Assembly: GCF_011045215.1 (NCBI RefSeq)
Contig: NZ_CP049201.1
From: Escherichia coli
GTDB taxonomy: Bacteria > Pseudomonadota > Gammaproteobacteria > Enterobacterales > Enterobacteriaceae
Length of the DNA stretch: 64,000 nt
Reading direction: 5' to 3' (one strand)
A program made the translations under genes and the position numbers. Within the stretch, counting starts at the first letter, position 1. Every line of letters begins with the position of its first letter. The notes below the pieces were generated by a model, which was not told the origin of the DNA, searched no databases, and worked only from the letters and a program-made list of their open reading frames with translations. This document shows, piece by piece, positions 1-44,103 of the stretch.

Positions 1-399
1 AGATACCGCCGTCAAGTTCGGGACGAATGCGCGTGAGGATCAGCATGGCAAAGGCCAGCAATAAAATGCCAGCGCCAGTAATACCCCAGCCGATGAGCAG
101 TGCTGCCGGGCTGGCAACTGCCGCCATATTTTGCGGCAGACTGAAAACACCCGCGCCCAGCATTGAGCTTAATACCAGCGCGGTGAGTGCGCTCAGTCCC
201 AGTTTCTTTTCCATCGATATCCAGTGATTAAAACGTGATAAGAAGAATAAATATTAGGGCAAAACGCATAAAAATGGAGTTTGCCACTGAAGCGCGGGAT
301 TTTACGAAGAGATGTGTCTGCATGCAATGGTCGCAGGGAAATTTGTGACTAAAAATGCGAAAGGCGGCATCAAGCCGCCTTATAGGAGTAACTGAATAG

Positions 400-1344
400 T
401 TATTTATACAGATCTGCGCTGACGGTCAGGTTATTACCACGTTCCTGCCACTGGCGGGTGATGTGGTAATACTTAGCACCTTTCTTCGCGGCACGTTTCG
501 CAACCTGATAGGAGACTTCGGTCATGTTGCCGTAGTTGCCAGAGAATTTGATGCTGTCGAACGGGACCATCATCGCTGCTGTCGCTTTGTTCAGTTCTTC
601 GACTTTAGTGCCGTCCGGGAGCGTGACGGTGTAACGCCCGCCTTTTGATGACTGGGTTTCAAAGAAGCGACCGACTTCAGAACTTGGTGATGCGGTAGTC
701 GCAACACCCGGGATCTCAACTTTCTTCGCGGCTTCGCCACCGGCAGCCAGAGCTGCACGTCCTGCTTCGGAATCTGCCGGGATCACATCCGGGCTCTGGA
801 CGATACGTTTCTTAGCATCTTTTTTATAGATGAATGCAGTAATACGCTGGTTGCCGCCCTGGTTGGCATCGATTTGACGAACAATGTAGAAAGAGTAGGC
901 ACCTTTCGCTTTTGCCGCTTTGGTGATGGCATCATTGACTTCTGGCTGGCTACGATAGAAGCCCTGGACGGTGACCGTGTCAAACGGTTCAATCAGAACA
1001 GCCTGATCTTTCGGCAGTTCGACAACACCGTTAATTACGCGATTACTTGTTTCTTCTGCTTTTTCAGCATCGGCTTTATAGAGGTCAGCGACCACACGCC
1101 AGTTACCGCTGTTACCAAAATCAGAAGTGTCGACAACATAAAAAGAGGCGGCACCTTCTTTATCTGCGCGACGAGAAACGGCTTTCACCGCTTCGCCAAT
1201 AGCATTAAAACGACCGGTAACCACTACACGGTCAAAAGGTTTAACCGCTGCCGCTTGCTCCGGTGTCAGTTCTGTTGCTGCGTTAACGGAGAATGCCGTA
1301 GCAGAAAGCAGTGCCGACGCCAGGAGGGTGTTCTTAAGCTTCAT
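400..1344 (-). CDS. ydgH: YdgH, periplasmic DUF1471-family protein
   Basis: 314-aa ORF with N-terminal signal peptide (MKLKNTLLASALLSATAFSVNA) and repeated YdgH-type domains; position next to pntA as in E. coli K-12. Confidence 0.85.
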   Translation of the reverse strand: MKLKNTLLASALLSATAFSVNAATELTPEQAAAVKPFDRVVVTGRFNAIGEAVKAVSRRADKEGAASFYVVDTSDFGNSGNWRVVADLYKADAEKAEETSNRVINGVVELPKDQAVLIEPFDTVTVQGFYRSQPEVNDAITKAAKAKGAYSFYIVRQIDANQGGNQRITAFIYKKDAKKRIVQSPDVIPADSEAGRAALAAGGEAAKKVEIPGVATTASPSSEVGRFFETQSSKGGRYTVTLPDGTKVEELNKATAAMMVPFDSIKFSGNYGNMTEVSYQVAKRAAKKGAKYYHITRQWQERGNNLTVSADLYK

Positions 1345-10175: not shown

Positions 10176-11069
10176 ATGAATATTGAACTTCGTCATCTGC
10201 GTTACTTTGTTGCTGTTGCGGAAGAGCTGCATTTCGGGCGCGCCGCTGCCCGCCTGAATATTTCGCAACCGCCGCTAAGTCAGCAGATTCAGGCGCTGGA
10301 GCAACAAATTGGTGCCCGACTGCTGGCACGAACCAATCGCAGTGTATTGCTGACGGCAGCAGGAAAACAGTTTCTTGCAGATAGTCGGCAAATCCTGTCT
10401 ATGGTGGATGACGCTGCCGCTCGCGCTGAAAGGCTGCATCAGGGTGAAGCGGGGGAGTTGCGTATTGGTTTTACTTCGTCCGCTCCTTTTATTCGGGCGG
10501 TGTCTGATACGTTATCGCTGTTTCGCCGTGATTATCCTGATGTCCATTTACAAACCCGCGAAATGAACACTCGCGAGCAAATCGCTCCGCTCATTGAAGG
10601 AACGCTGGATATGGGATTGCTGCGTAACACAGCGTTACCGGAGACGCTTGAACACGCAGTCATCGTCCATGAACCGCTTATGGCGATGATCCCGCACGAT
10701 CATCCCCTGGCAAATAATTCGAGTGTAACACTGGCTGAACTGGCTAAAGAACCCTTTGTCTTTTTTGATCCGCACGTCGGGACAGGGCTGTATGACGATA
10801 TTCTCGGGCTGATGCGACGTTACCATTTGACGCCCGTCATCACTCAGGAGGTGGGCGAGGCAATGACCATCATCGGTCTGGTTTCCGCCGGTCTGGGTGT
10901 TTCAATTTTGCCTGCGTCATTTAAACGTGTTCAGCTCAACGAAATGCGCTGGGTGCCGATTGCTGAAGAGGATGCGGTTTCTGAAATGTGGTTGGTCTGG
11001 CCGAAGCATCATGAACAAAGTCCAGCTGCGCGTAACTTTCGTATTCATCTGCTGAATGCTCTCAGGTGA
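10176..11069 (+). CDS. ynfL: LysR-family transcriptional regulator YnfL
   Basis: 297 aa with N-terminal LysR HTH (LRYFVAVAEELHFGRAAARLNISQPPLSQQI). Confidence 0.9.
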   Translation: MNIELRHLRYFVAVAEELHFGRAAARLNISQPPLSQQIQALEQQIGARLLARTNRSVLLTAAGKQFLADSRQILSMVDDAAARAERLHQGEAGELRIGFTSSAPFIRAVSDTLSLFRRDYPDVHLQTREMNTREQIAPLIEGTLDMGLLRNTALPETLEHAVIVHEPLMAMIPHDHPLANNSSVTLAELAKEPFVFFDPHVGTGLYDDILGLMRRYHLTPVITQEVGEAMTIIGLVSAGLGVSILPASFKRVQLNEMRWVPIAEEDAVSEMWLVWPKHHEQSPAARNFRIHLLNALR

Positions 11070-11203
11070 GGGAAATTTCAGCGAAAAAGCCCGAAAAATG
11101 TGCTGTTAATCACATGCCTAAGTAAAAATTTGACGACACGTATTGAAGTGCTTCACCATAGCCTACAGATTATTTCGGAGCGCGAAAATATAGGGAGTAT
11201 GCG

Positions 11204-12424
11204 GTGGTTGCTGAAAACCAGCCTGGGCACATTGATCAAATAAAGCAGACCAACGCGGGCGCGGTTTATCGCCTGATTGATCAGCTTGGTCCAGTCTCGC
11301 GTATCGATCTTTCCCGTCTGGCGCAGCTGGCTCCTGCCAGTATCACTAAAATTGTCCGTGAGATGCTCGAAGCACACCTGGTGCAAGAGCTGGAAATCAA
11401 AGAAGCGGGGAACCGTGGCCGTCCGGCGGTGGGGCTGGTGGTTGAAACTGAAGCCTGGCACTATCTTTCTCTGCGCATTAGTCGCGGGGAGATTTTCCTT
11501 GCTCTGCGCGATCTGAGCAGCAAACTGGTGGTGGAAGAGTCGCAGGAACTGGCGTTAAAAGATGACTCGCCATTGCTGGATCGTATCATTTCCCATATCG
11601 ATCAGTTTTTTATCCGCCACCAGAAAAAACTTGAGCGTCTAACTTCGATTGCCATAACCCTGCCGGGAATTATTGATACGGAAAATGGCATTGTACATCG
11701 CATGCCGTTCTACGAGGATGTAAAAGAGATGCCGCTCGGCGAGGCTCTGGAGCAGCATACCGGCGTTCCGGTTTATATACAGCATGATATCAGCGCATGG
11801 ACGATGGCAGAGGCCTTGTTTGGTGCCTCACGCGGGGCGCGCGATGTGATTCAGGTGGTTATCGATCACAACGTGGGGGCGGGCGTCATTACCGATGGTC
11901 ATCTGCTACACGCAGGCAGCAGTAGCCTCGTGGAAATAGGTCACACACAGGTAGACCCATATGGTAAACGCTGTTATTGCGGGAACCACGGCTGCCTCGA
12001 AACCATCGCCAGTGTGGACAGTATTCTTGAGCTGGCACAGCTGCGTCTCAATCAATCCATGAGCTCGATGTTACATGGGCAACCGTTAACCGTGGACTCA
12101 TTGTGTCAGGCGGCATTGCGCGGCGATCTGCTGGCAAAAGACATCATTACCGGGGTGGGCGCGCATGTAGGGCGCATTCTTGCCATCATGGTGAATTTAT
12201 TTAACCCACAAAAAATACTGATTGGCTCACCGTTAAGTAAAGCGGCAGATATCCTCTTCCCGGTCATCTCAGACAGCATCCGTCAGCAGGCCCTTCCTGC
12301 GTATAGTCAGCACATTAGCGTTGAGAGTACTCAGTTTTCTAACCAGGGCACGATGGCAGGGGCTGCGCTGGTAAAAGACGCGATGTATAACGGTTCTTTG
12401 TTGATTCGTCTGTTGCAGGGTTAA
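11204..12424 (+). CDS. mlc: ROK-family global repressor Mlc (DgsA)
   Basis: 406 aa from a GTG start (MVAENQPGH...); ROK zinc motif CYCGNHGCLE. Confidence 0.92.
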   Translation: MVAENQPGHIDQIKQTNAGAVYRLIDQLGPVSRIDLSRLAQLAPASITKIVREMLEAHLVQELEIKEAGNRGRPAVGLVVETEAWHYLSLRISRGEIFLALRDLSSKLVVEESQELALKDDSPLLDRIISHIDQFFIRHQKKLERLTSIAITLPGIIDTENGIVHRMPFYEDVKEMPLGEALEQHTGVPVYIQHDISAWTMAEALFGASRGARDVIQVVIDHNVGAGVITDGHLLHAGSSSLVEIGHTQVDPYGKRCYCGNHGCLETIASVDSILELAQLRLNQSMSSMLHGQPLTVDSLCQAALRGDLLAKDIITGVGAHVGRILAIMVNLFNPQKILIGSPLSKAADILFPVISDSIRQQALPAYSQHISVESTQFSNQGTMAGAALVKDAMYNGSLLIRLLQG

Positions 12425-31807: not shown

Positions 31808-31865
31808 TAAAAACGGCGGCAGAGCAGTCACGGAGTAAAACTGATACCGCCAAACGTCACCAGAA
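31808..31865 (-). ncRNA. dicF: DicF small regulatory RNA
   Basis: minus-strand sequence UUUCUGGUGACGUUUGGCGGUAUCAGUUUUACUCCGUGACUGCUCUGCCGCC followed by a U-run matches DicF (53 nt plus terminator tail). Confidence 0.88.
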
Positions 31866-37476: not shown

Positions 37477-37687
37477 TTTCATATTGGCGAGGTAACGGTA
37501 GTTAAGTAGAATGGCTGCGGGTGCTTGAGGCTATCTGCCTCGGGCATGAACACCAACGGCAGATAGAGAAAAGCCCCAGTTAACATTACGCGTCCTGCAA
37601 GACGCTTAACATTAATCTGAGGCCAATTTCATGCTAGACACATGTAGGTTAGCCTCTTACGTGCCGAAAGGCAAGGAGAAGCAGGCT

Positions 37688-37843
37688 ATGAAGCAGCAAA
37701 AGGCGATGTTAATCGCCCTGATCGTCATCTGTTTAACCGTCATAGTGACGGCACTGGTAACGAGGAAAGACCTCTGCGAGGTACGAATCCGAACCGGCCA
37801 GACGGAGGTCGCTGTCTTCACAGCTTACGAACCTGAGGAGTAA
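37688..37843 (+). CDS. hok: Hok/Gef-family type I toxin
   Basis: 51 aa MKQQKAMLIALIVICLTVIVTALVTRKDLCEVRIRTGQTEVAVFTAYEPEE, typical Hok; in-frame upstream ATG at 37631 could act as a mok-like leader. Confidence 0.88.
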   Translation: MKQQKAMLIALIVICLTVIVTALVTRKDLCEVRIRTGQTEVAVFTAYEPEE

Positions 37844-39707: not shown

Positions 39708-39724
39708 TTTTGTGGAGAAAGTTG

Positions 39725-40069
39725 ATGCGTGATATGTATGAAGTTTTAGACCGCTGGGGAGCGTGGGCTGCAGCAGATAACAGTGGTGTGGACTGGCAGC
39801 CGATAGCAGCAGGCTTTAAGGGGCTTTTACCTCATGGTAAAAAAATACGCCTTCAGTGTGATGATGATGAAGGCATCATGATAGACGGCTGTGTTGCCCG
39901 CCTGTGTAAGTATAAACCAGACGAATATGAGCTGATCATTGCTCACTTCGTTATAGGTATTTCACTGCGTTCTATTGCGAAGAGACGCAGATGCTCAGAT
40001 GGAACAATCCGGAAGCAATTGCAGACTGCGTTAGGTTTCATTAATGGGGTTATGTACATGCTCAAGTAA
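39725..40069 (+). CDS. Q: late-gene antiterminator Q (933W/82-type)
   Basis: 114 aa from ATG with GGAG RBS (MRDMYEVLDRWGAWAA...), N-terminus resembles small Q antiterminators. Confidence 0.8.
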   Translation: MRDMYEVLDRWGAWAAADNSGVDWQPIAAGFKGLLPHGKKIRLQCDDDEGIMIDGCVARLCKYKPDEYELIIAHFVIGISLRSIAKRRRCSDGTIRKQLQTALGFINGVMYMLK

Positions 40070-41288
40070 TATTTGGCATTAATTTAAATAAAATACCGAT
40101 GATGCCTATGAATGTAGGCATCCATGCTAGTGATAATAAACTGTCAAGCACCTTATGACAAAAATCCTCATTGTCATTTAATTTTTTAATAGCCTCTTCT
40201 AAGCTCTCTTTAAGATCGCTGGTGTCATCCTTTATTCTATATCTTAATTGTCCAAAAAGTATTTCTTTAGAGTGTGAAATACGAGCAAGTTGTTTTTTTT
40301 GTGACACAATCATTGCAGATGTTATTATTGCTGTGATAATCAATCCAATTAAAGCAATAATCCAATCAGCTTTTGTTGTTAATTTGAAAATAGCAATTGA
40401 ACCAGCTAGTGAAATAGGTATTGCAAGAGCTTTGTTAGAAATTTCTGAAATTATTTTTGACAGTTTTTCTGAGTAATCGAGTTCAGCATCAACAACTTCT
40501 TTCCTTGCTTTATGAAAAGAAAATGCCGATATATAAGCAGCTAAGTTGTTCGTATAAAGTTCGCATATGAAATCCCACTTGTTAATTAACTCGACAAAGG
40601 AATTTCCATTTTTATTAACATACTCAATAACTGTGTTTCTGAAAGTGTTAATCTTTTCAATGTGATGGGCATCAGTAGTAGCTTCACTACTTACTAATGT
40701 TTTAACTAACTGAGTATTTACTGTTTTATCATTAAAAATTTCTTCTGTAATATTTGTTTCAATTACAGCAGAAGAAGATTTAGACTCTGAGTTTAAAATA
40801 AAGACTAAACGATAAAATGTACCTTTGCTATCTTTTTTTATATCATGGAAATGAGCAAGCATGGAAAGAGCATTGATTAGCTCACAAATGTCCTCAATTT
40901 TTTGGATATAAGAAGGTTTTGGTGTTTCTAATGAATAGAAATCATCCTCTATAATATAGAAATACTCTGGCATTATGCCTTTCTTGAGCGTGTTTATTTT
41001 TACAAACTCGTTTTTATTTTTATAAAAACGATTCGCACTTCCTTGTGAAATTTTAAACGAGTATGTAAGAAAATTTCCCTTTTCAGGAAAGTCTTCATAA
41101 TCATAAATTAAATGACCATCCACCTCTATTTCGTCAGCTGTACCAGCTTGAAAAGTAGGGTTCAAAATTCTTTTGAACAATGATTTTACGTCTGCATTAT
41201 AAGCTATACGCGCAGAAAACTTAGCCCCGTCAAAATGAGGATAGCTTGATAATCTATACAGATTAACTATTATACTAAAATCATTCAT
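40062..41288 (-). CDS. candidate defence effector: protein with soluble N-terminal domain and C-terminal transmembrane helices
   Basis: 408 aa, AT-rich; hydrophobic segments ALAIPISLAGSIAIFKL, WIIALIGLIITAIITSAMIVS and WMPTFIGIIGILFKL; start overlaps upstream gene stop (ATGA). Confidence 0.75.
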   Translation of the reverse strand: MNDFSIIVNLYRLSSYPHFDGAKFSARIAYNADVKSLFKRILNPTFQAGTADEIEVDGHLIYDYEDFPEKGNFLTYSFKISQGSANRFYKNKNEFVKINTLKKGIMPEYFYIIEDDFYSLETPKPSYIQKIEDICELINALSMLAHFHDIKKDSKGTFYRLVFILNSESKSSSAVIETNITEEIFNDKTVNTQLVKTLVSSEATTDAHHIEKINTFRNTVIEYVNKNGNSFVELINKWDFICELYTNNLAAYISAFSFHKARKEVVDAELDYSEKLSKIISEISNKALAIPISLAGSIAIFKLTTKADWIIALIGLIITAIITSAMIVSQKKQLARISHSKEILFGQLRYRIKDDTSDLKESLEEAIKKLNDNEDFCHKVLDSLLSLAWMPTFIGIIGILFKLMPNIT

Positions 41289-42451
41289 TCTTTATCTTCT
41301 TCATTACTCGGGTTATCAGTTTCTTTCAACGCTCTTCTTATCTTAGTTAATGCTTCAACAGGCAAATTATTAAATGTTAGGCTTTGGTTTTCGTCATCAT
41401 AATATATTTTAGCATCAGTTGTGACACCGAGTAAATCCTTGTCGAAGTGAAAGCTCAATGATGGGGTTTTATATATCACATTGCGGATTTTATCTAAGGA
41501 GTTTTTATTGATTACGAACTCTGATGGGATTCTGACTTCCTCACTATTGAGGTGTTTCATTAATTTATCAACAAGTTCTGTTTTTTCTTCCTCTTTTAAA
41601 TAGGACATATGGCCTGAAGCAAGCGATTCGATATCAGAAAGCCTTGCAGAGTGCTCGTTGTCAAATTGCTTTTCTAAGTATTTGATAACATCATTTCTAA
41701 ATGACTCTGCTTGATTTTTTAAAAGAGGTTCTTTCTTAAAGAAACGCCTTATTTCATCTGGTAACTTACGGGTTGCGCCTGCTGAAGCAATCCCCTTGTC
41801 ACATCCTAATGCTGCTATAAAATATGCTGCCGCTGACTGTCCCGTAGTTTTGCTTATAAAGCTTAGATAACTTAAGTCTGTTTTTTTTAAATCATCTGCT
41901 TTTTGGTATTCTTCATAATATCTGAAATTTATTTTTGCTGCTTGGTTAATATTACCAAGTTCTAAGTGAATCATTTCCTCTGGCTCTAAATTTTCACTAA
42001 TAGTTACGCCATTAGTTTTTTTGATCATTGTAACCAATAGATAACGGAAACCAGATAAAATATAATCAGTAAAAACAACATATCCTCCAGAAGCCCAAAT
42101 CTGCTCTTGAGCAGATTTATACATTTGTTTCATAACTTCCTTCGATAATTCAATGAAATCATTTGAAACAGATTGTTGAACTAAAGAGTATTTATGAAAT
42201 AGTTCTGGTATAGGGCCTTGTTTTGTTTTATTTTTAATAAAAACACCATAATGCGCTGAGTTCCCTTTTGAACCATACAAATCAATAACACCGTCTACTA
42301 ATTTTTTTACTATATCATTTGTTTTATCTAGTTCTGTATCACGAAGATTGTATGGTTTGGAGTGATCGAAGTCTTTATTAGATTCTTTTAAGAGCTCATG
42401 AACGATTACGTGGCGTATGCTTGCTTTGCTCATTTTTTTGGTCAATTCCAT
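41285..42451 (-). CDS. YejK/NdpA-like (NA37 family) nucleoid-associated-type protein
   Basis: 388 aa, AT-rich; blocks resembling E. coli YejK (IRHVIVHELLK; SGGYVVFTDY..FRYLLVTMIK...ISENL; YLSFISKTTG..AAYFIAALG); start may be the internal ATG at 42433. Confidence 0.75.
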   Translation of the reverse strand: MELTKKMSKASIRHVIVHELLKESNKDFDHSKPYNLRDTELDKTNDIVKKLVDGVIDLYGSKGNSAHYGVFIKNKTKQGPIPELFHKYSLVQQSVSNDFIELSKEVMKQMYKSAQEQIWASGGYVVFTDYILSGFRYLLVTMIKKTNGVTISENLEPEEMIHLELGNINQAAKINFRYYEEYQKADDLKKTDLSYLSFISKTTGQSAAAYFIAALGCDKGIASAGATRKLPDEIRRFFKKEPLLKNQAESFRNDVIKYLEKQFDNEHSARLSDIESLASGHMSYLKEEEKTELVDKLMKHLNSEEVRIPSEFVINKNSLDKIRNVIYKTPSLSFHFDKDLLGVTTDAKIYYDDENQSLTFNNLPVEALTKIRRALKETDNPSNEEDKE

Positions 42452-42550
42452 GCGGTTAAGCTAACAATTGTAAAGAGCATAATAAATTACTAACGCGTAC
42501 GCAAAAACTATCATAATCTGTTAAGAGTGGTTACTTCGCCACACAGCTTA

Positions 42551-42577
42551 AACCCGCCGTCGAGCGGTTTTTTTGTA
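42551..42577. terminator. hairpin plus T-run upstream of the AT-rich operon
   Basis: aaacccgccgtcgagcggttttttt: bulged stem flanked by A-run and T-run, possibly bidirectional. Confidence 0.4.
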
Positions 42578-43050: not shown

Positions 43051-44103
43051 ATGAAAAATACTGTAAAAATAAACAGTGTTGATTTAATCAACGCTGATTG
43101 CCTGCATTTTATTCAGTCCTTGCCTGATGATTCCATTGATCTGATTGTTACCGATCCGCCGTACTTCAAAGTGAAGCCCAACGGCTGGGACAATCAGTGG
43201 AAAGGGGACGAAGATTACCTGAAGTGGCTGGACTACTGTCTGGCCCAGTTCTGGCGGGTACTGAAACCAGCCGGAAGCCTTTACCTGTTCTGTGGACATC
43301 GCCTGGCATCTGATATTGAGATCATGATGCGTGAACGTTTCAACGTGCTTAACCATATCATCTGGGCGAAGCCGTCCGGACGTTGGAATGGGTGTAATAA
43401 AGAAAGTCTGCGCGCATATTTTCCTGCCACAGAGCGCGTTCTGTTTGCTGAACATTACCAGGGGCCATATCGCGGCAAAAGTGACGGCTATGCGGCAAAA
43501 GAAAGGGAACTCAAACAGCACATAATGGCACCGCTGATATCGTATTTCAGGGATGCTCGTGCCGAACTGGGTATAACGGCAAAACAAATTGCCGAAGCCA
43601 CAGGTAAGAAAAATATGGTTTCCCACTGGTTTGGTGCCAGTCAGTGGCAGTTGCCGAATGAGGCTGACTATCGGAAGTTACAGGCACTGTTTTCCCGTAT
43701 AGCGGCAGAGAAGTTTCAGGAACAACAACTGGAACAACCACACCACCAGCTGGTGGCATCTTATGATTCACTGAATCGCAAATATTCTGAATTGCTGGAT
43801 GAGTTTAAATCTCTCCGGCGCTATTTCTCCGTATCAGTCTCCGTGCCTTATACCGATGTCTGGATGCATAAACCCGTTCAGTTCTACCCGGGTAAACATC
43901 CGTGTGAGAAACCTGCGGATATGCTCCGGCAAATAATCAATGCCAGTAGTCGACCTGGTGATCTGGTTGCTGATTTTTTTATGGGATCCGGTTCCACAAT
44001 AAAAGCAGCAATGGCGCTGGGGCGTCGGGCCTTAGGTGTTGAGCTTGAGTCAGAGCGGTTTAACCAGACAGTGAAAGAGATATACGAGCTGGTGGGGAAA
44101 TAA
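43051..44103 (+). CDS. DNA N6-adenine/N4-cytosine methyltransferase
   Basis: 350 aa with DPPY catalytic motif near N-terminus and AdoMet motif FFMGSGST near C-terminus (beta-class arrangement). Confidence 0.88.
   Translation: MKNTVKINSVDLINADCLHFIQSLPDDSIDLIVTDPPYFKVKPNGWDNQWKGDEDYLKWLDYCLAQFWRVLKPAGSLYLFCGHRLASDIEIMMRERFNVLNHIIWAKPSGRWNGCNKESLRAYFPATERVLFAEHYQGPYRGKSDGYAAKERELKQHIMAPLISYFRDARAELGITAKQIAEATGKKNMVSHWFGASQWQLPNEADYRKLQALFSRIAAEKFQEQQLEQPHHQLVASYDSLNRKYSELLDEFKSLRRYFSVSVSVPYTDVWMHKPVQFYPGKHPCEKPADMLRQIINASSRPGDLVADFFMGSGSTIKAAMALGRRALGVELESERFNQTVKEIYELVGK

Follow-up and report, generated by a model that had tools for sequence, protein, structure and literature searches.

A two-gene cassette in a lambdoid prophage of Escherichia coli is, by protein homology, a divergent relative of DS-1 and a member of the DS-1 homologous superfamily. 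DS-1 is an experimentally validated E. coli defense pair (DefensePredictor, Science 2026; PMC13092281). The cassette genes, referred to here as A and B, likely form a prophage antiphage system, and we assign a probability of about three in four to the reading that they combine a nucleoid-protein sensor with a membrane effector in an abortive, type II PANGU-like relative of DS-1. A first-pass annotation of the window (the whole 64,000-nucleotide stretch of DNA analyzed) had presented the pair as a candidate undescribed system and had itself named a match to an already-named defense system as counting against that claim. Such a match, though distant, exists: both proteins match the paired NCBIfam models for DS-1, DS-1 has been validated, and type II PANGU has been published. 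The claim of novelty therefore fails, and the locus reveals no new kind of system.

Location and Borders of the Cassette

Genes A and B form a moron-like two-gene operon in a variable cargo slot of the Q-to-lysis region, as first proposed (table 1). The cassette is tail-to-tail with the gene of a Q-like antiterminator and upstream of methyltransferase and holin genes, and these neighbors were all found as the first-pass annotation described them. So were the ATGA junction, at which the TGA stop of gene A overlaps the ATG start of gene B (4-bp overlap), and the 8-bp tail-to-tail overlap with Q (B stop at 40062-40064, Q stop at 40067-40069). The low GC content ascribed to the pair is also evident (0.319 versus 0.50 in the window, 0.475 upstream, and 0.517 downstream). 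The slot is in the late region, but the cassette itself apparently lies between Q and a promoter/terminator-like block rather than within the late transcript. Scans with Rfam models and for tRNA genes yielded no match within or adjoining the cassette. The true start of gene A is likely the ATG at 42433 (382 aa) rather than that at 42451, because the former is favored by the alignment of homologs and by the RefSeq start (WP_120130707.1).

Table 1. Coordinates of the cassette, its flanking features, and regions of the gene B product in the window.
Feature	Position	Strand	Description
Q-family antiterminator gene	39710..40069	+	phrog_79, E 9e-46; left border of cassette
Gene B	40062..41288	-	ORF of 408 aa; DS-1B-like membrane protein; presumed effector
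B residues 383-401	40086..40142	-	C-terminal hydrophobic helix, TM3
B residues 287-328	40305..40430	-	Hydrophobic helical hairpin, TM1-TM2
B residues 181-285	40434..40748	-	Acidic helical region; secondary structure from AF2 model
B residues 1-180	40749..41288	-	N-terminal alpha/beta domain without recognizable fold
Gene A	41285..42451	-	Longest ORF 388 aa; NA37/YejK family; presumed sensor, Pag2A/DS-1A-like
Candidate operon promoter	42476..42504	-	TTGCGT, 17 nt, TATGCT; read from sequence; weak, putative
Conserved noncoding block	42491..42575	+	Four-locus DNA alignment plus terminator-like site
DNA methyltransferase gene	43051-44103		phrog_67; followed by holin and lysozyme ORFs

The conserved noncoding block is the right-hand border of the exchangeable cassette. 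It consists of an invariant TAACGCGTACGCAAAA (42491-42506), the motif TGnTAAGAGT (42519-42528), and a hairpin with a T-run (42556-42575), and it may be the late promoter/qut/terminator module. In the four-locus DNA alignment, the -35-like hexamer of the candidate A/B promoter falls inside the invariant part of the block, and each of the DS-1, Pectobacterium, and Klebsiella loci likewise has a TAnnnT hexamer spaced 17 nt from it. The candidate is proposed solely from this cross-locus conservation; a scan for promoter consensus sequences picked up none on the minus strand ahead of gene A.

Homology to DS-1

NCBIfam has paired models for DS-1, DS1_1_antiphage (nucleoid-associated antiphage protein; NF053868) and DS1_2_antiphage (NF053869). 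Gene A scores 98.2 bits on the former (E 4.9e-28; cut-off of 330 bits) and gene B scores 100.7 bits on the latter (E 8.9e-29; cut-off of 315 bits), with residues 86-397 of B aligned to positions 31-336 of the 337 in the model. Both thus fall short of the equivalog cut-offs, at about one-third of the curated values; a DS-1A-type protein from Pseudoteredinibacter, for comparison, exceeds the cut-off of NF053868 with 429.5 bits. BLASTP aligns A to DS-1A and B to DS-1B at 24% identity (E 3e-11 and 2e-10, respectively), and a comparison of the B and DS-1B families with hhalign gives a probability of 99.4% (E 2.9e-21) over 302 columns that include the TM region.

The likeness to DS-1 extends to organization and location. 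Both systems are two-gene operons with an overlapping or nearly overlapping gene junction in an AT-rich cassette, in which a gene for an NA37 protein comes first and is followed by one for a protein of about 400 aa with a hydrophobic C-terminal region; the two proteins of one pair are homologous to those of the other, in the same order. In lambdoid prophages of E. coli, the two cassettes also share one slot, where each is tail-to-tail with Q and has homologous flanks on both sides. The Q gene flanking DS-1 is 84% identical to that next to gene B, and the two loci have near-identical DNA past the 5' ends of their cassettes. Relative to DS-1, however, the A/B pair is just 24-27% identical, the zinc ribbon at the N terminus of DS-1A is missing from gene A, the TM region of gene B is more hydrophobic (Kyte-Doolittle maximum of 2.76 versus 1.56 in DS-1B), and the pair is rarer (29 versus 106 of 5426 complete E. 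coli genomes).

For DS-1 itself (WP_000355468.1 and WP_000150292.1), the entry in Table S7 describes a clone under the native promoter (PMC13092281), and the cloned pair protects on its own, with no prophage present (PMC13092281). Reductions in efficiency of plating listed for it, as -log EOP, are 7.6 for Bas1, 2.7 for Bas26, 1.7 for Bas3 and T3, and 1.0 for T5 (PMC13092281).

The A/B pair has been predicted as well. WP_120130707.1, by which RefSeq represents gene A in close relatives, is among the predicted novel defense genes of DefensePredictor with a log-odds of 10.3, as is WP_016159279.1 with 13.05 (PMC13092281). The latter (408 aa) is probably gene B. The pair is absent from the tables of tested units of that study, which predicted but did not clone it (PMC13092281). 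No model for A or B was found in PADLOC-DB v2 (2023), which predates DS-1 and PANGU; a match to DrmC in that database (E 0.047) was dismissed as chance level. A literature search for the accession numbers of the pair returned none.

Features of the A and B Proteins

The block-wise likeness to NA37 proteins claimed for gene A understated the relationship, as the match to the Pfam NA37 model is full length (E 2.8e-50), with residues 16-364 aligned to positions 1-321 of 325. Gene A also matches phrog_3767 (E 2e-98), and its alignment to the structure of E. coli YejK/NdpA (PDB 9BE2) runs end to end (E 6.7e-15), residues 11-372 spanning both YejK domains (YejK 7-331) at ~21% identity. The NCBIfam YejK equivalog model (NF001557) gives 133.2 bits, below its 341-bit cut-off, and this housekeeping model outscores the DS-1A model on gene A (133 versus 98 bits). 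On these scores, we class gene A as a member of the NA37 family that is a paralog of YejK and not an equivalog, and it further differs from YejK in being prophage encoded and having a dedicated partner. The possibility that gene A is a second housekeeping copy of yejK was rejected on the basis of the low score, the dedicated and conserved partner, and its mobile-element contexts.

Residues that contact DNA in YejK are poorly kept. The N-domain triad R173/R176/K177 is replaced by T/Q/S in gene A, and the C-domain residues R276/R280/K284 correspond to K316/D320/N324, with K316 alone kept in place; altogether, five of six mapped DNA-binding residues are not kept in place. Three other basic residues (K321, R323, and K328) are close to the C-domain positions. 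Because the triad is lost and a single C-domain basic position is kept, DNA binding by the product of gene A is an assumption. An alignment also revealed that the N-terminal CxxC...CxxC zinc ribbon is absent from gene A and all five of its partner-linked subfamily relatives and is present in two DS-1A-type proteins.

Gene B is a C-terminal TM protein as claimed, with three hydrophobic segments after a soluble part of ~285 aa (Kyte-Doolittle peaks of 1.61 at 287-305, 2.76 at 310-328, and 1.94 at 383-401). Its AF2 model (pLDDT of 87.9) has helices at 289-302 and 306-351. The basic stretch QKKQLARISHSK follows the TM1-TM2 hairpin, and a W389-P391 motif is kept across the B family. The soluble part (residues 1-285) has a net charge of -8 and a pI of 5.46, and this part is acidic in 50 of 50 family members (median net charge of -10). 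Gene B matches phrog_5023 (E 1e-137). No significant domain was found in Pfam, the B-family profile drew no match below E 0.05 from the sequences in the PDB, and a structure search with the whole of gene B gave generic helical matches only. Further groups for comparison are other two-gene defenses with TM effectors, such as Kiwa KwaA/KwaB, and CorA- or ClyA-like helical membrane proteins.

Distribution and Pairing

Co-occurrence of the two genes away from this locus was borne out by a check of gene neighborhoods, as an NA37 gene is directly upstream in 11 of 12 sampled B-superfamily genes. Pairs of NA37 and B-superfamily genes are present in prophages of Edwardsiella, Pectobacterium, and Klebsiella, in marine and other metagenomes, and in integrase-bearing elements. 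Beyond lambdoid prophages, A-B pairing occurs on plasmids, on integrase-borne islands, and beside AbiEii, AAA_21, and NACHT genes; one such pair adjoins a NACHT gene on a conjugative plasmid of Pseudomonas. A megablast search of the cassette against the INPHARED phages gave no match, and a later tblastn search found the pair in one phage, Klebsiella phage P7641. Divergence of A tracks that of B (Spearman correlation of 0.96, p 4.5e-4, n = 7). One natural disruption of the cassette by IS1 was observed, with the prophage region otherwise retained.

Comparison to Type II PANGU

Type II PANGU systems pair a YejK-like nucleoid-associated protein (NAP) with a protein whose soluble part is acidic and whose C-terminal region is TM, and they are described as acting by abortive infection; for the type II system PANGU-Ecu, both genes are reported to be needed and neither to be toxic alone (bioRxiv 10.64898/2026.04.06.716658). 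For type I PANGU, escape mutants map to EndoII, a nuclease that degrades host DNA. Type II systems are delimited by a NAP HMM match of E < 1e-10 in a protein of at least 300 aa and by an intergenic distance < 40 bp, and the acidic N-terminal domain of the partner is described as DNA-mimicking. Gene A (382-388 aa) matches NA37 at E 2.8e-50 and overlaps gene B by 4 bp, and gene B has an acidic soluble part (net charge of -8) followed by TM segments at 287-328 and 383-401. As in type II PANGU, the two genes are closely packed into one bicistronic operon and carried on mobile DNA. The likeness described here is one of architecture, and whereas PANGU systems were found via linkage to defense islands, the A/B pair is in a late-region slot of a prophage. 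By this comparison, the pair appears to fit the published description.

Predicted Mechanism and Alternatives

In the mechanism that we favor, the product of gene A would form a YejK-like dimeric clamp on the chromosomal DNA of the uninfected lysogen. An infecting phage that degrades or disrupts the nucleoid would set A free, and free A would dock at the inner membrane onto the N-terminal part of B, which is soluble and acidic. Binding is predicted to switch the helical/TM region of B, leading to membrane damage or growth arrest, such that the infected cell gives no phage. We infer every functional step at this locus from the homology of A and B to DS-1A and DS-1B, gene order, the prophage slot, pairing with codivergence, and the acidic-soluble-plus-TM architecture.

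Locations and affinities reported for type II PANGU are consistent with this mechanism. In PANGU-Ecu, Pag2A is on the nucleoid before infection and leaves upon T4 infection, and Pag2A binds the soluble domain of Pag2B with a KD of 19 nM (bioRxiv 10.64898/2026.04.06.716658). These are the only mechanistic data for the architecture of a NAP with a TM partner, and both the relocation and the nanomolar binding argue against a defense built of the same parts that responds to a trigger other than nucleoid degradation, for example, a phage protein or DNA feature recognized by A or by the N-terminal domain of B. We consider such a trigger possible but unlikely. In its favor, the basic triad of the YejK N-domain is not kept in gene A, and the N-terminal alpha/beta domain of B, which is without a known fold, could be a sensor. 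The zinc ribbon of DS-1A, missing in gene A, suggests that the input side varies between subfamilies. PANGU-Ecu (type II) targets T4, and T1 and T5 are resistant to it (bioRxiv 10.64898/2026.04.06.716658), whereas there is no T4 entry among the Table S7 matches listed for DS-1 (PMC13092281). To the extent that these listed spectra differ, the trigger may not be common to both systems.

Features of the pair could also be read to suggest that its subfamily is functionally distinct from DS-1 and PANGU-Ecu, with its own trigger and phage range and with expression wired into the late switch, but this seems rather improbable to us. The lack of a zinc ribbon, the differently built DNA-contact surface of A, and the strong hydrophobicity of B would point to a separate function, and the candidate promoter, which shares the invariant TAACGCGTACGCAAAA block that separates Q from the late terminator-like hairpin, would point to wiring into the switch. 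If the latter is true, a prophage entering the lytic cycle might be able to shut down its abortive-infection module or set it free.

Nonabortive superinfection exclusion, in which B sits in the inner membrane, A traps or blocks incoming phage DNA near its site of entry, and the cell survives, is still harder to support. A moron slot in a prophage is typical of exclusion genes, and gene B encodes a membrane protein whose TM counterparts have an action established in neither the DS-1 nor the PANGU study. Phages of the T5 and T7 types inject their DNA stepwise. Both types are included among the targets listed for DS-1 (PMC13092281), and gene A belongs to a family of DNA clamps that bind without sequence specificity (PMC11229321). 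However, cultures with PANGU-Ecu stall at a MOI of 10 and phage titers drop (bioRxiv 10.64898/2026.04.06.716658), which reads as abortive infection; Pag2A is on the nucleoid rather than the membrane prior to infection; and the soluble part of B, acidic throughout its family, suits a DNA mimic that binds a clamp better than it does a block to entry.

Least credible is that the pair serves the prophage itself, with A as a xenogeneic NAP regulator and its membrane partner tuning expression, induction, or lysis timing and resistance being incidental: NA37 proteins on mobile elements are described as able to regulate (PMC8565334), with NdpA2 of the PAPI-1 ICE a comparable case, and the position of the cassette between Q and the promoter/terminator-like block, which its candidate promoter overlaps, makes it physically intertwined with the late switch, but A-B pairs are found on plasmids and islands where that switch is absent, DS-1 alone protects in a prophage-free context, and the IS1 disruption is in a prophage region otherwise retained.

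Implications for Defense in Lambdoid Prophages

If our preferred reading of a nucleoid-protein sensor and membrane effector is confirmed, the A/B pair would be a second, highly diverged allele beside the only validated E. coli defense composed of a nucleoid protein and a membrane protein. Because they have common flanks and ~25% identity, DS-1 and the A/B pair are a natural exchange pair, useful for dissecting determinants of phage specificity, the contribution of the zinc ribbon, and the action of the membrane effector. In Escherichia, Klebsiella, Pectobacterium, and Edwardsiella alike, the site between Q and the conserved block, which may be a late promoter, is one at which lambdoid prophages exchange defense cargo.

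Homology of the Gene Pair to DS-1

The pair formed by A (the NA37/YejK-family gene, presumed sensor) and B (the membrane-protein gene, presumed effector) is related to DS-1, a validated two-gene defence system of E. coli. The first-pass annotation had recognised no named defence system in the pairing and proposed a candidate undescribed one. This novelty no longer stands, as A and B distantly match the paired NCBIfam models NF053868 (DS1_1_antiphage, nucleoid-associated anti-phage protein; E = 4.9e-28) and NF053869 (DS1_2_antiphage; E = 8.9e-29, across nearly the full model), both far under the equivalog cut-offs. BLASTP aligns A with DS-1A (24% identity, E = 3e-11) and B with DS-1B (24% identity, E = 2e-10), and a profile-profile comparison of 22 relatives of B with 28 of DS-1B gives a probability of 99.4% (E = 2.9e-21); the 302 aligned columns start midway in the soluble part and extend across the TM region. 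On these matches, homology to DS-1A and DS-1B is secure for both components at the level of sequence and, with scores so far under the cut-offs, membership in the DS-1 equivalog families is not.

DS-1 comes from DefensePredictor, where it is the E. coli transcription unit D390, and consists of DS-1A (WP_000355468.1, with a zinc ribbon and NA37 in 391 aa) and DS-1B (WP_000150292.1, 404 aa); cloned with its native promoter, it is among 42 validated systems (PMC13092281). In the rows of Table S7 covered here, its -log EOP is 7.6 against Bas1, 2.7 against Bas26, 1.7 against Bas3 and T3, 1.0 against T5, and 0.9, with small plaques, against T7 (PMC13092281). In the same paper, the YejK domain is described as newly linked to defence, and the mechanism of DS-1 is nowhere discussed. 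Its Table S10, on predicted novel defence genes, includes WP_120130707.1, the RefSeq protein for A in close relatives (log-odds 10.3), and the 408-aa WP_016159279.1 (log-odds 13.05), probably gene B, with an accession next to the one of the flanking Q protein. Both are absent from the DefensePredictor tables of cloned units (PMC13092281).

Features of Genes A and B

The claimed NA37/YejK similarity of A extends over the full length (Pfam PF04245, E = 2.8e-50; residues 16-364 of A match positions 1-321 of the 325-position model), and its alignment with the solved structure of E. coli YejK (9BE2, E = 6.7e-15) likewise runs from one end of the protein to the other. The housekeeping YejK itself is ruled out because A scores 133 bits against a cut-off of 341 bits. 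YejK is a dimeric DNA clamp with a pore lined by R173/R176/K177 and R276/R280/K284 (PMC11229321). In the alignment, the first triplet is replaced by T/Q/S in A and the second corresponds to K316/D320/N324, with K321, R323, and K328 close by. A thus keeps the YejK fold and only part of its DNA-contact surface. The A subfamily lacks the zinc ribbon that DS-1A carries in addition to NA37. Gene A has in-frame ATGs at 42451 (388 aa) and 42433 (382 aa) on the minus strand, and public databases hold both forms. Neither is preceded by an obvious Shine-Dalgarno sequence; alignment of homologues supports the downstream ATG at 42433, the start used in RefSeq.

No domain was found in B with Pfam. A confident AF2 model (pLDDT 87.9) divides the protein into three parts, and the C-terminal TM helices anticipated for it appear as three hydrophobic segments (table). 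The likely topology is a cytoplasmic N-terminus followed by a TM hairpin, then a helical linker in the cytoplasm with a basic stretch at its start, and a last TM helix. The soluble part is acidic (net charge -8, pI 5.46), as it is in 50 of 50 aligned family members (median net charge -10). The TM segments of B are more hydrophobic than those of DS-1B.

An Exchangeable Cassette Adjoining Q

Both ORFs lie where the first-pass annotation placed them, and its description of the locus is borne out. The TGA stop of A overlaps the ATG start of B at GAATGAATG, the stop codons of B and Q overlap tail-to-tail by 8 bp, and GC content is 0.29-0.36 along the pair (mean 0.319), against 0.50 for the window and 0.475 and 0.517 for the flanks. 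A DUF968/HNH-type gene lies on the Q side; beyond the pair are, in order, a 75-aa ORF and genes for a DNA methyltransferase, holin, lysozyme, and Rz. The host element is a Qin-like lambdoid prophage, as sok and DicF RNA matches indicate. The sok RNA belongs to a hok/sok-type toxin-antitoxin module, where it overlaps a Hok-like ORF.

Features of the A-B locus and of protein B
Feature	Position	Strand	Remarks
DicF antisense RNA	31814-31865	-	Rfam, 72.5 bits, full model
hok/sok-type module	37519-37843	+
sok RNA	37519-37693		Rfam, 115 bits; gathering score 59
Hok-like ORF	37631-37843		70 aa
Q-like antiterminator	39710-40069	+	phrog_79, E = 9e-46
Gene B	40062-41288	-	ORF, 408 aa
Gene A	41285-42451	-	longest ORF, 388 aa
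Candidate operon promoter	42504-42476	-	TTGCGT-17 nt-TATGCT; weak
Invariant TAACGCGTACGCAAAA, containing palindrome GCGTACGC	42491-42506	+	four-locus alignment
TGnTAAGAGT	42519-42528	+	four-locus alignment
Hairpin and T-run	42556-42575	+	in the two E. coli loci
B, N-terminal alpha/beta domain	residues 1-180		AF2 model
B, acidic helical region	after N-terminal domain		AF2 model
B, long helices with hydrophobic segments	residues 287-305, 310-328, 383-401		AF2 model and hydrophobicity

Of 5426 complete E. coli genomes, 29 contain the A-B pair at 99% identity or above, in every one adjoining a Q gene, and DS-1, present in 106 of the 5426, also overlaps the 3' end of Q. The annotated DS-1 locus shares the early-region neighbours of the window (DUF968, KilA-N, RusA, LexA-like, Dam, and PerC), and the Q proteins are 84% identical. 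On the opposite side, the DNA of the two loci is near-identical from 36 nt upstream of the A ATG, including TAACGCGTACGCAAAA, TGnTAAGAGT, the hairpin with its T-run, and the first downstream ORF. With this common Q edge and matching opposite flank, DS-1 and the A-B pair are alternative cassettes at one site, bounded on one side by Q. Next to the cassette, TAACGCGTACGCAAAA and TGnTAAGAGT are kept in Escherichia, Pectobacterium, and Klebsiella prophages (the window, L014, L008, and L010), and the conserved block at 42491-42575 (+) is plausibly a late promoter/qut/terminator module. The -35-like hexamer of the candidate operon promoter falls within the invariant block, and each of the four loci has a TAnnnT hexamer at that spacing.

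One of the 29 carriers, strain 268.2 (NZ_CP059947.1, 1161599-1164765), has an IS1 transposase inside the pair and is a natural knockout comparable with intact carriers. In the same prophage region of strain AR434 (L001, 17158-19057), the prophage integrase has as neighbours a reverse-transcriptase-domain gene and an adjoining gene with a SLATT domain, past degraded portal and tail pseudogenes; they are probably a second defence cargo. The Edwardsiella prophage with the homologous A-B cassette (L005/L006/L007) has a BrnT/BrnA toxin-antitoxin pair in its early region (~10792-11308).

Conservation of the Pairing

Relatives of B form 59 clusters across Enterobacterales. A two-subfamily B profile recovers 1191 representatives (E <= 1e-3), of which 319 reach E <= 1e-30, from 1.84 billion proteins; nearly all are ~400 aa long and are matched along their entire length. 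An NA37 gene is directly upstream in 11 of the 12 B-superfamily genes with inspected neighbourhoods, in prophages and other elements. These contexts include the same Q-to-lysis slot in Edwardsiella, Pectobacterium, and Klebsiella prophages, contigs from marine and other metagenomes, elements with integrase or resolvase genes, and an island of Pseudoteredinibacter that carries AAA_21 and AbiEii genes. The pair also occurs in the isolated temperate Klebsiella phage P7641 (PQ133623.1, 3821-6182), whose annotation calls both genes hypothetical and in which lysis genes and a Q-sized gene lie on either side, and on the Pseudomonas putida conjugative plasmid p716811-VIM (48844-51240), ~2 kb from a NACHT-domain gene. 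The exception among the 12, P0177 (L017, 1409-3256), is a 615-aa protein with a C-terminal SH3_3 extension and no upstream NA37 gene; on its 3.5-kb contig it neighbours a housekeeping MTA/SAH nucleosidase gene, and this variant may act alone or with a different partner. Across seven loci, divergence of A correlates with that of B (Spearman 0.96, p = 4.5e-4), so both genes are inherited and evolve as a unit.

Comparison with PANGU and Possible Mechanism

PANGU systems combine a YejK-like nucleoid-associated protein with an effector; in type II, Pag2A is paired with Pag2B, which has an N-terminal acidic "DNA-mimicking" domain and a C-terminal TM domain (April 2026 preprint, 10.64898/2026.04.06.716658). 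The preprint, which does not cite DefensePredictor, defines candidates by an NA37 match, a length of 300 aa or more, and an operon gap below 40 bp, all of which are found in the A-B pair. The link of PANGU type II to DS-1 and to the A-B pair is one of architecture only. With homology to DS-1, we put the probability that the pair is a defence system of the DS-1/PANGU type II kind at about 0.75.

The E. coli type II system depends on both genes, each of them non-toxic by itself; growth of infected cultures stalls and phage titres drop, which reads as abortive infection; Pag2A-GFP on the nucleoid becomes diffuse after T4 infection; and Pag2A is bound by the soluble domain of Pag2B (KD 19 nM) (10.64898/2026.04.06.716658). 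By analogy, there is about an even chance that the A-B pair acts by relocation. A would ride host DNA as a clamp, nucleoid damage by phage would free it, and freed A would bind the acidic soluble region of B, whose helical/TM part would then compromise the membrane or arrest growth.

The two PANGU systems target T4 or Bas34 but leave T1 and T5 unaffected (10.64898/2026.04.06.716658), a spectrum unlike that of DS-1, for which the Table S7 rows covered here have no T4 entry (PMC13092281). That the pair has these parts but responds to another trigger is an unlikely but serious alternative to defence by relocation. Non-abortive exclusion at the membrane is less probable still. A prophage-regulatory role is the least credible; it is weakened by the presence of the pair on plasmids and islands and by the protection that DS-1 gives when cloned alone.

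Implications

The kind of system is already known, from DS-1 (2025-2026) and, by architecture, from PANGU type II (2026), and the RefSeq protein of A, probably with that of B, had been flagged computationally. What is new is a highly diverged, as yet predicted-only defence subfamily, without the zinc ribbon and with a more hydrophobic effector; the exchangeability of the A-B pair and DS-1 at one site, with Q and a conserved noncoding block as its edges; and evidence of near-obligate pairing and co-divergence of A and B over a large superfamily.
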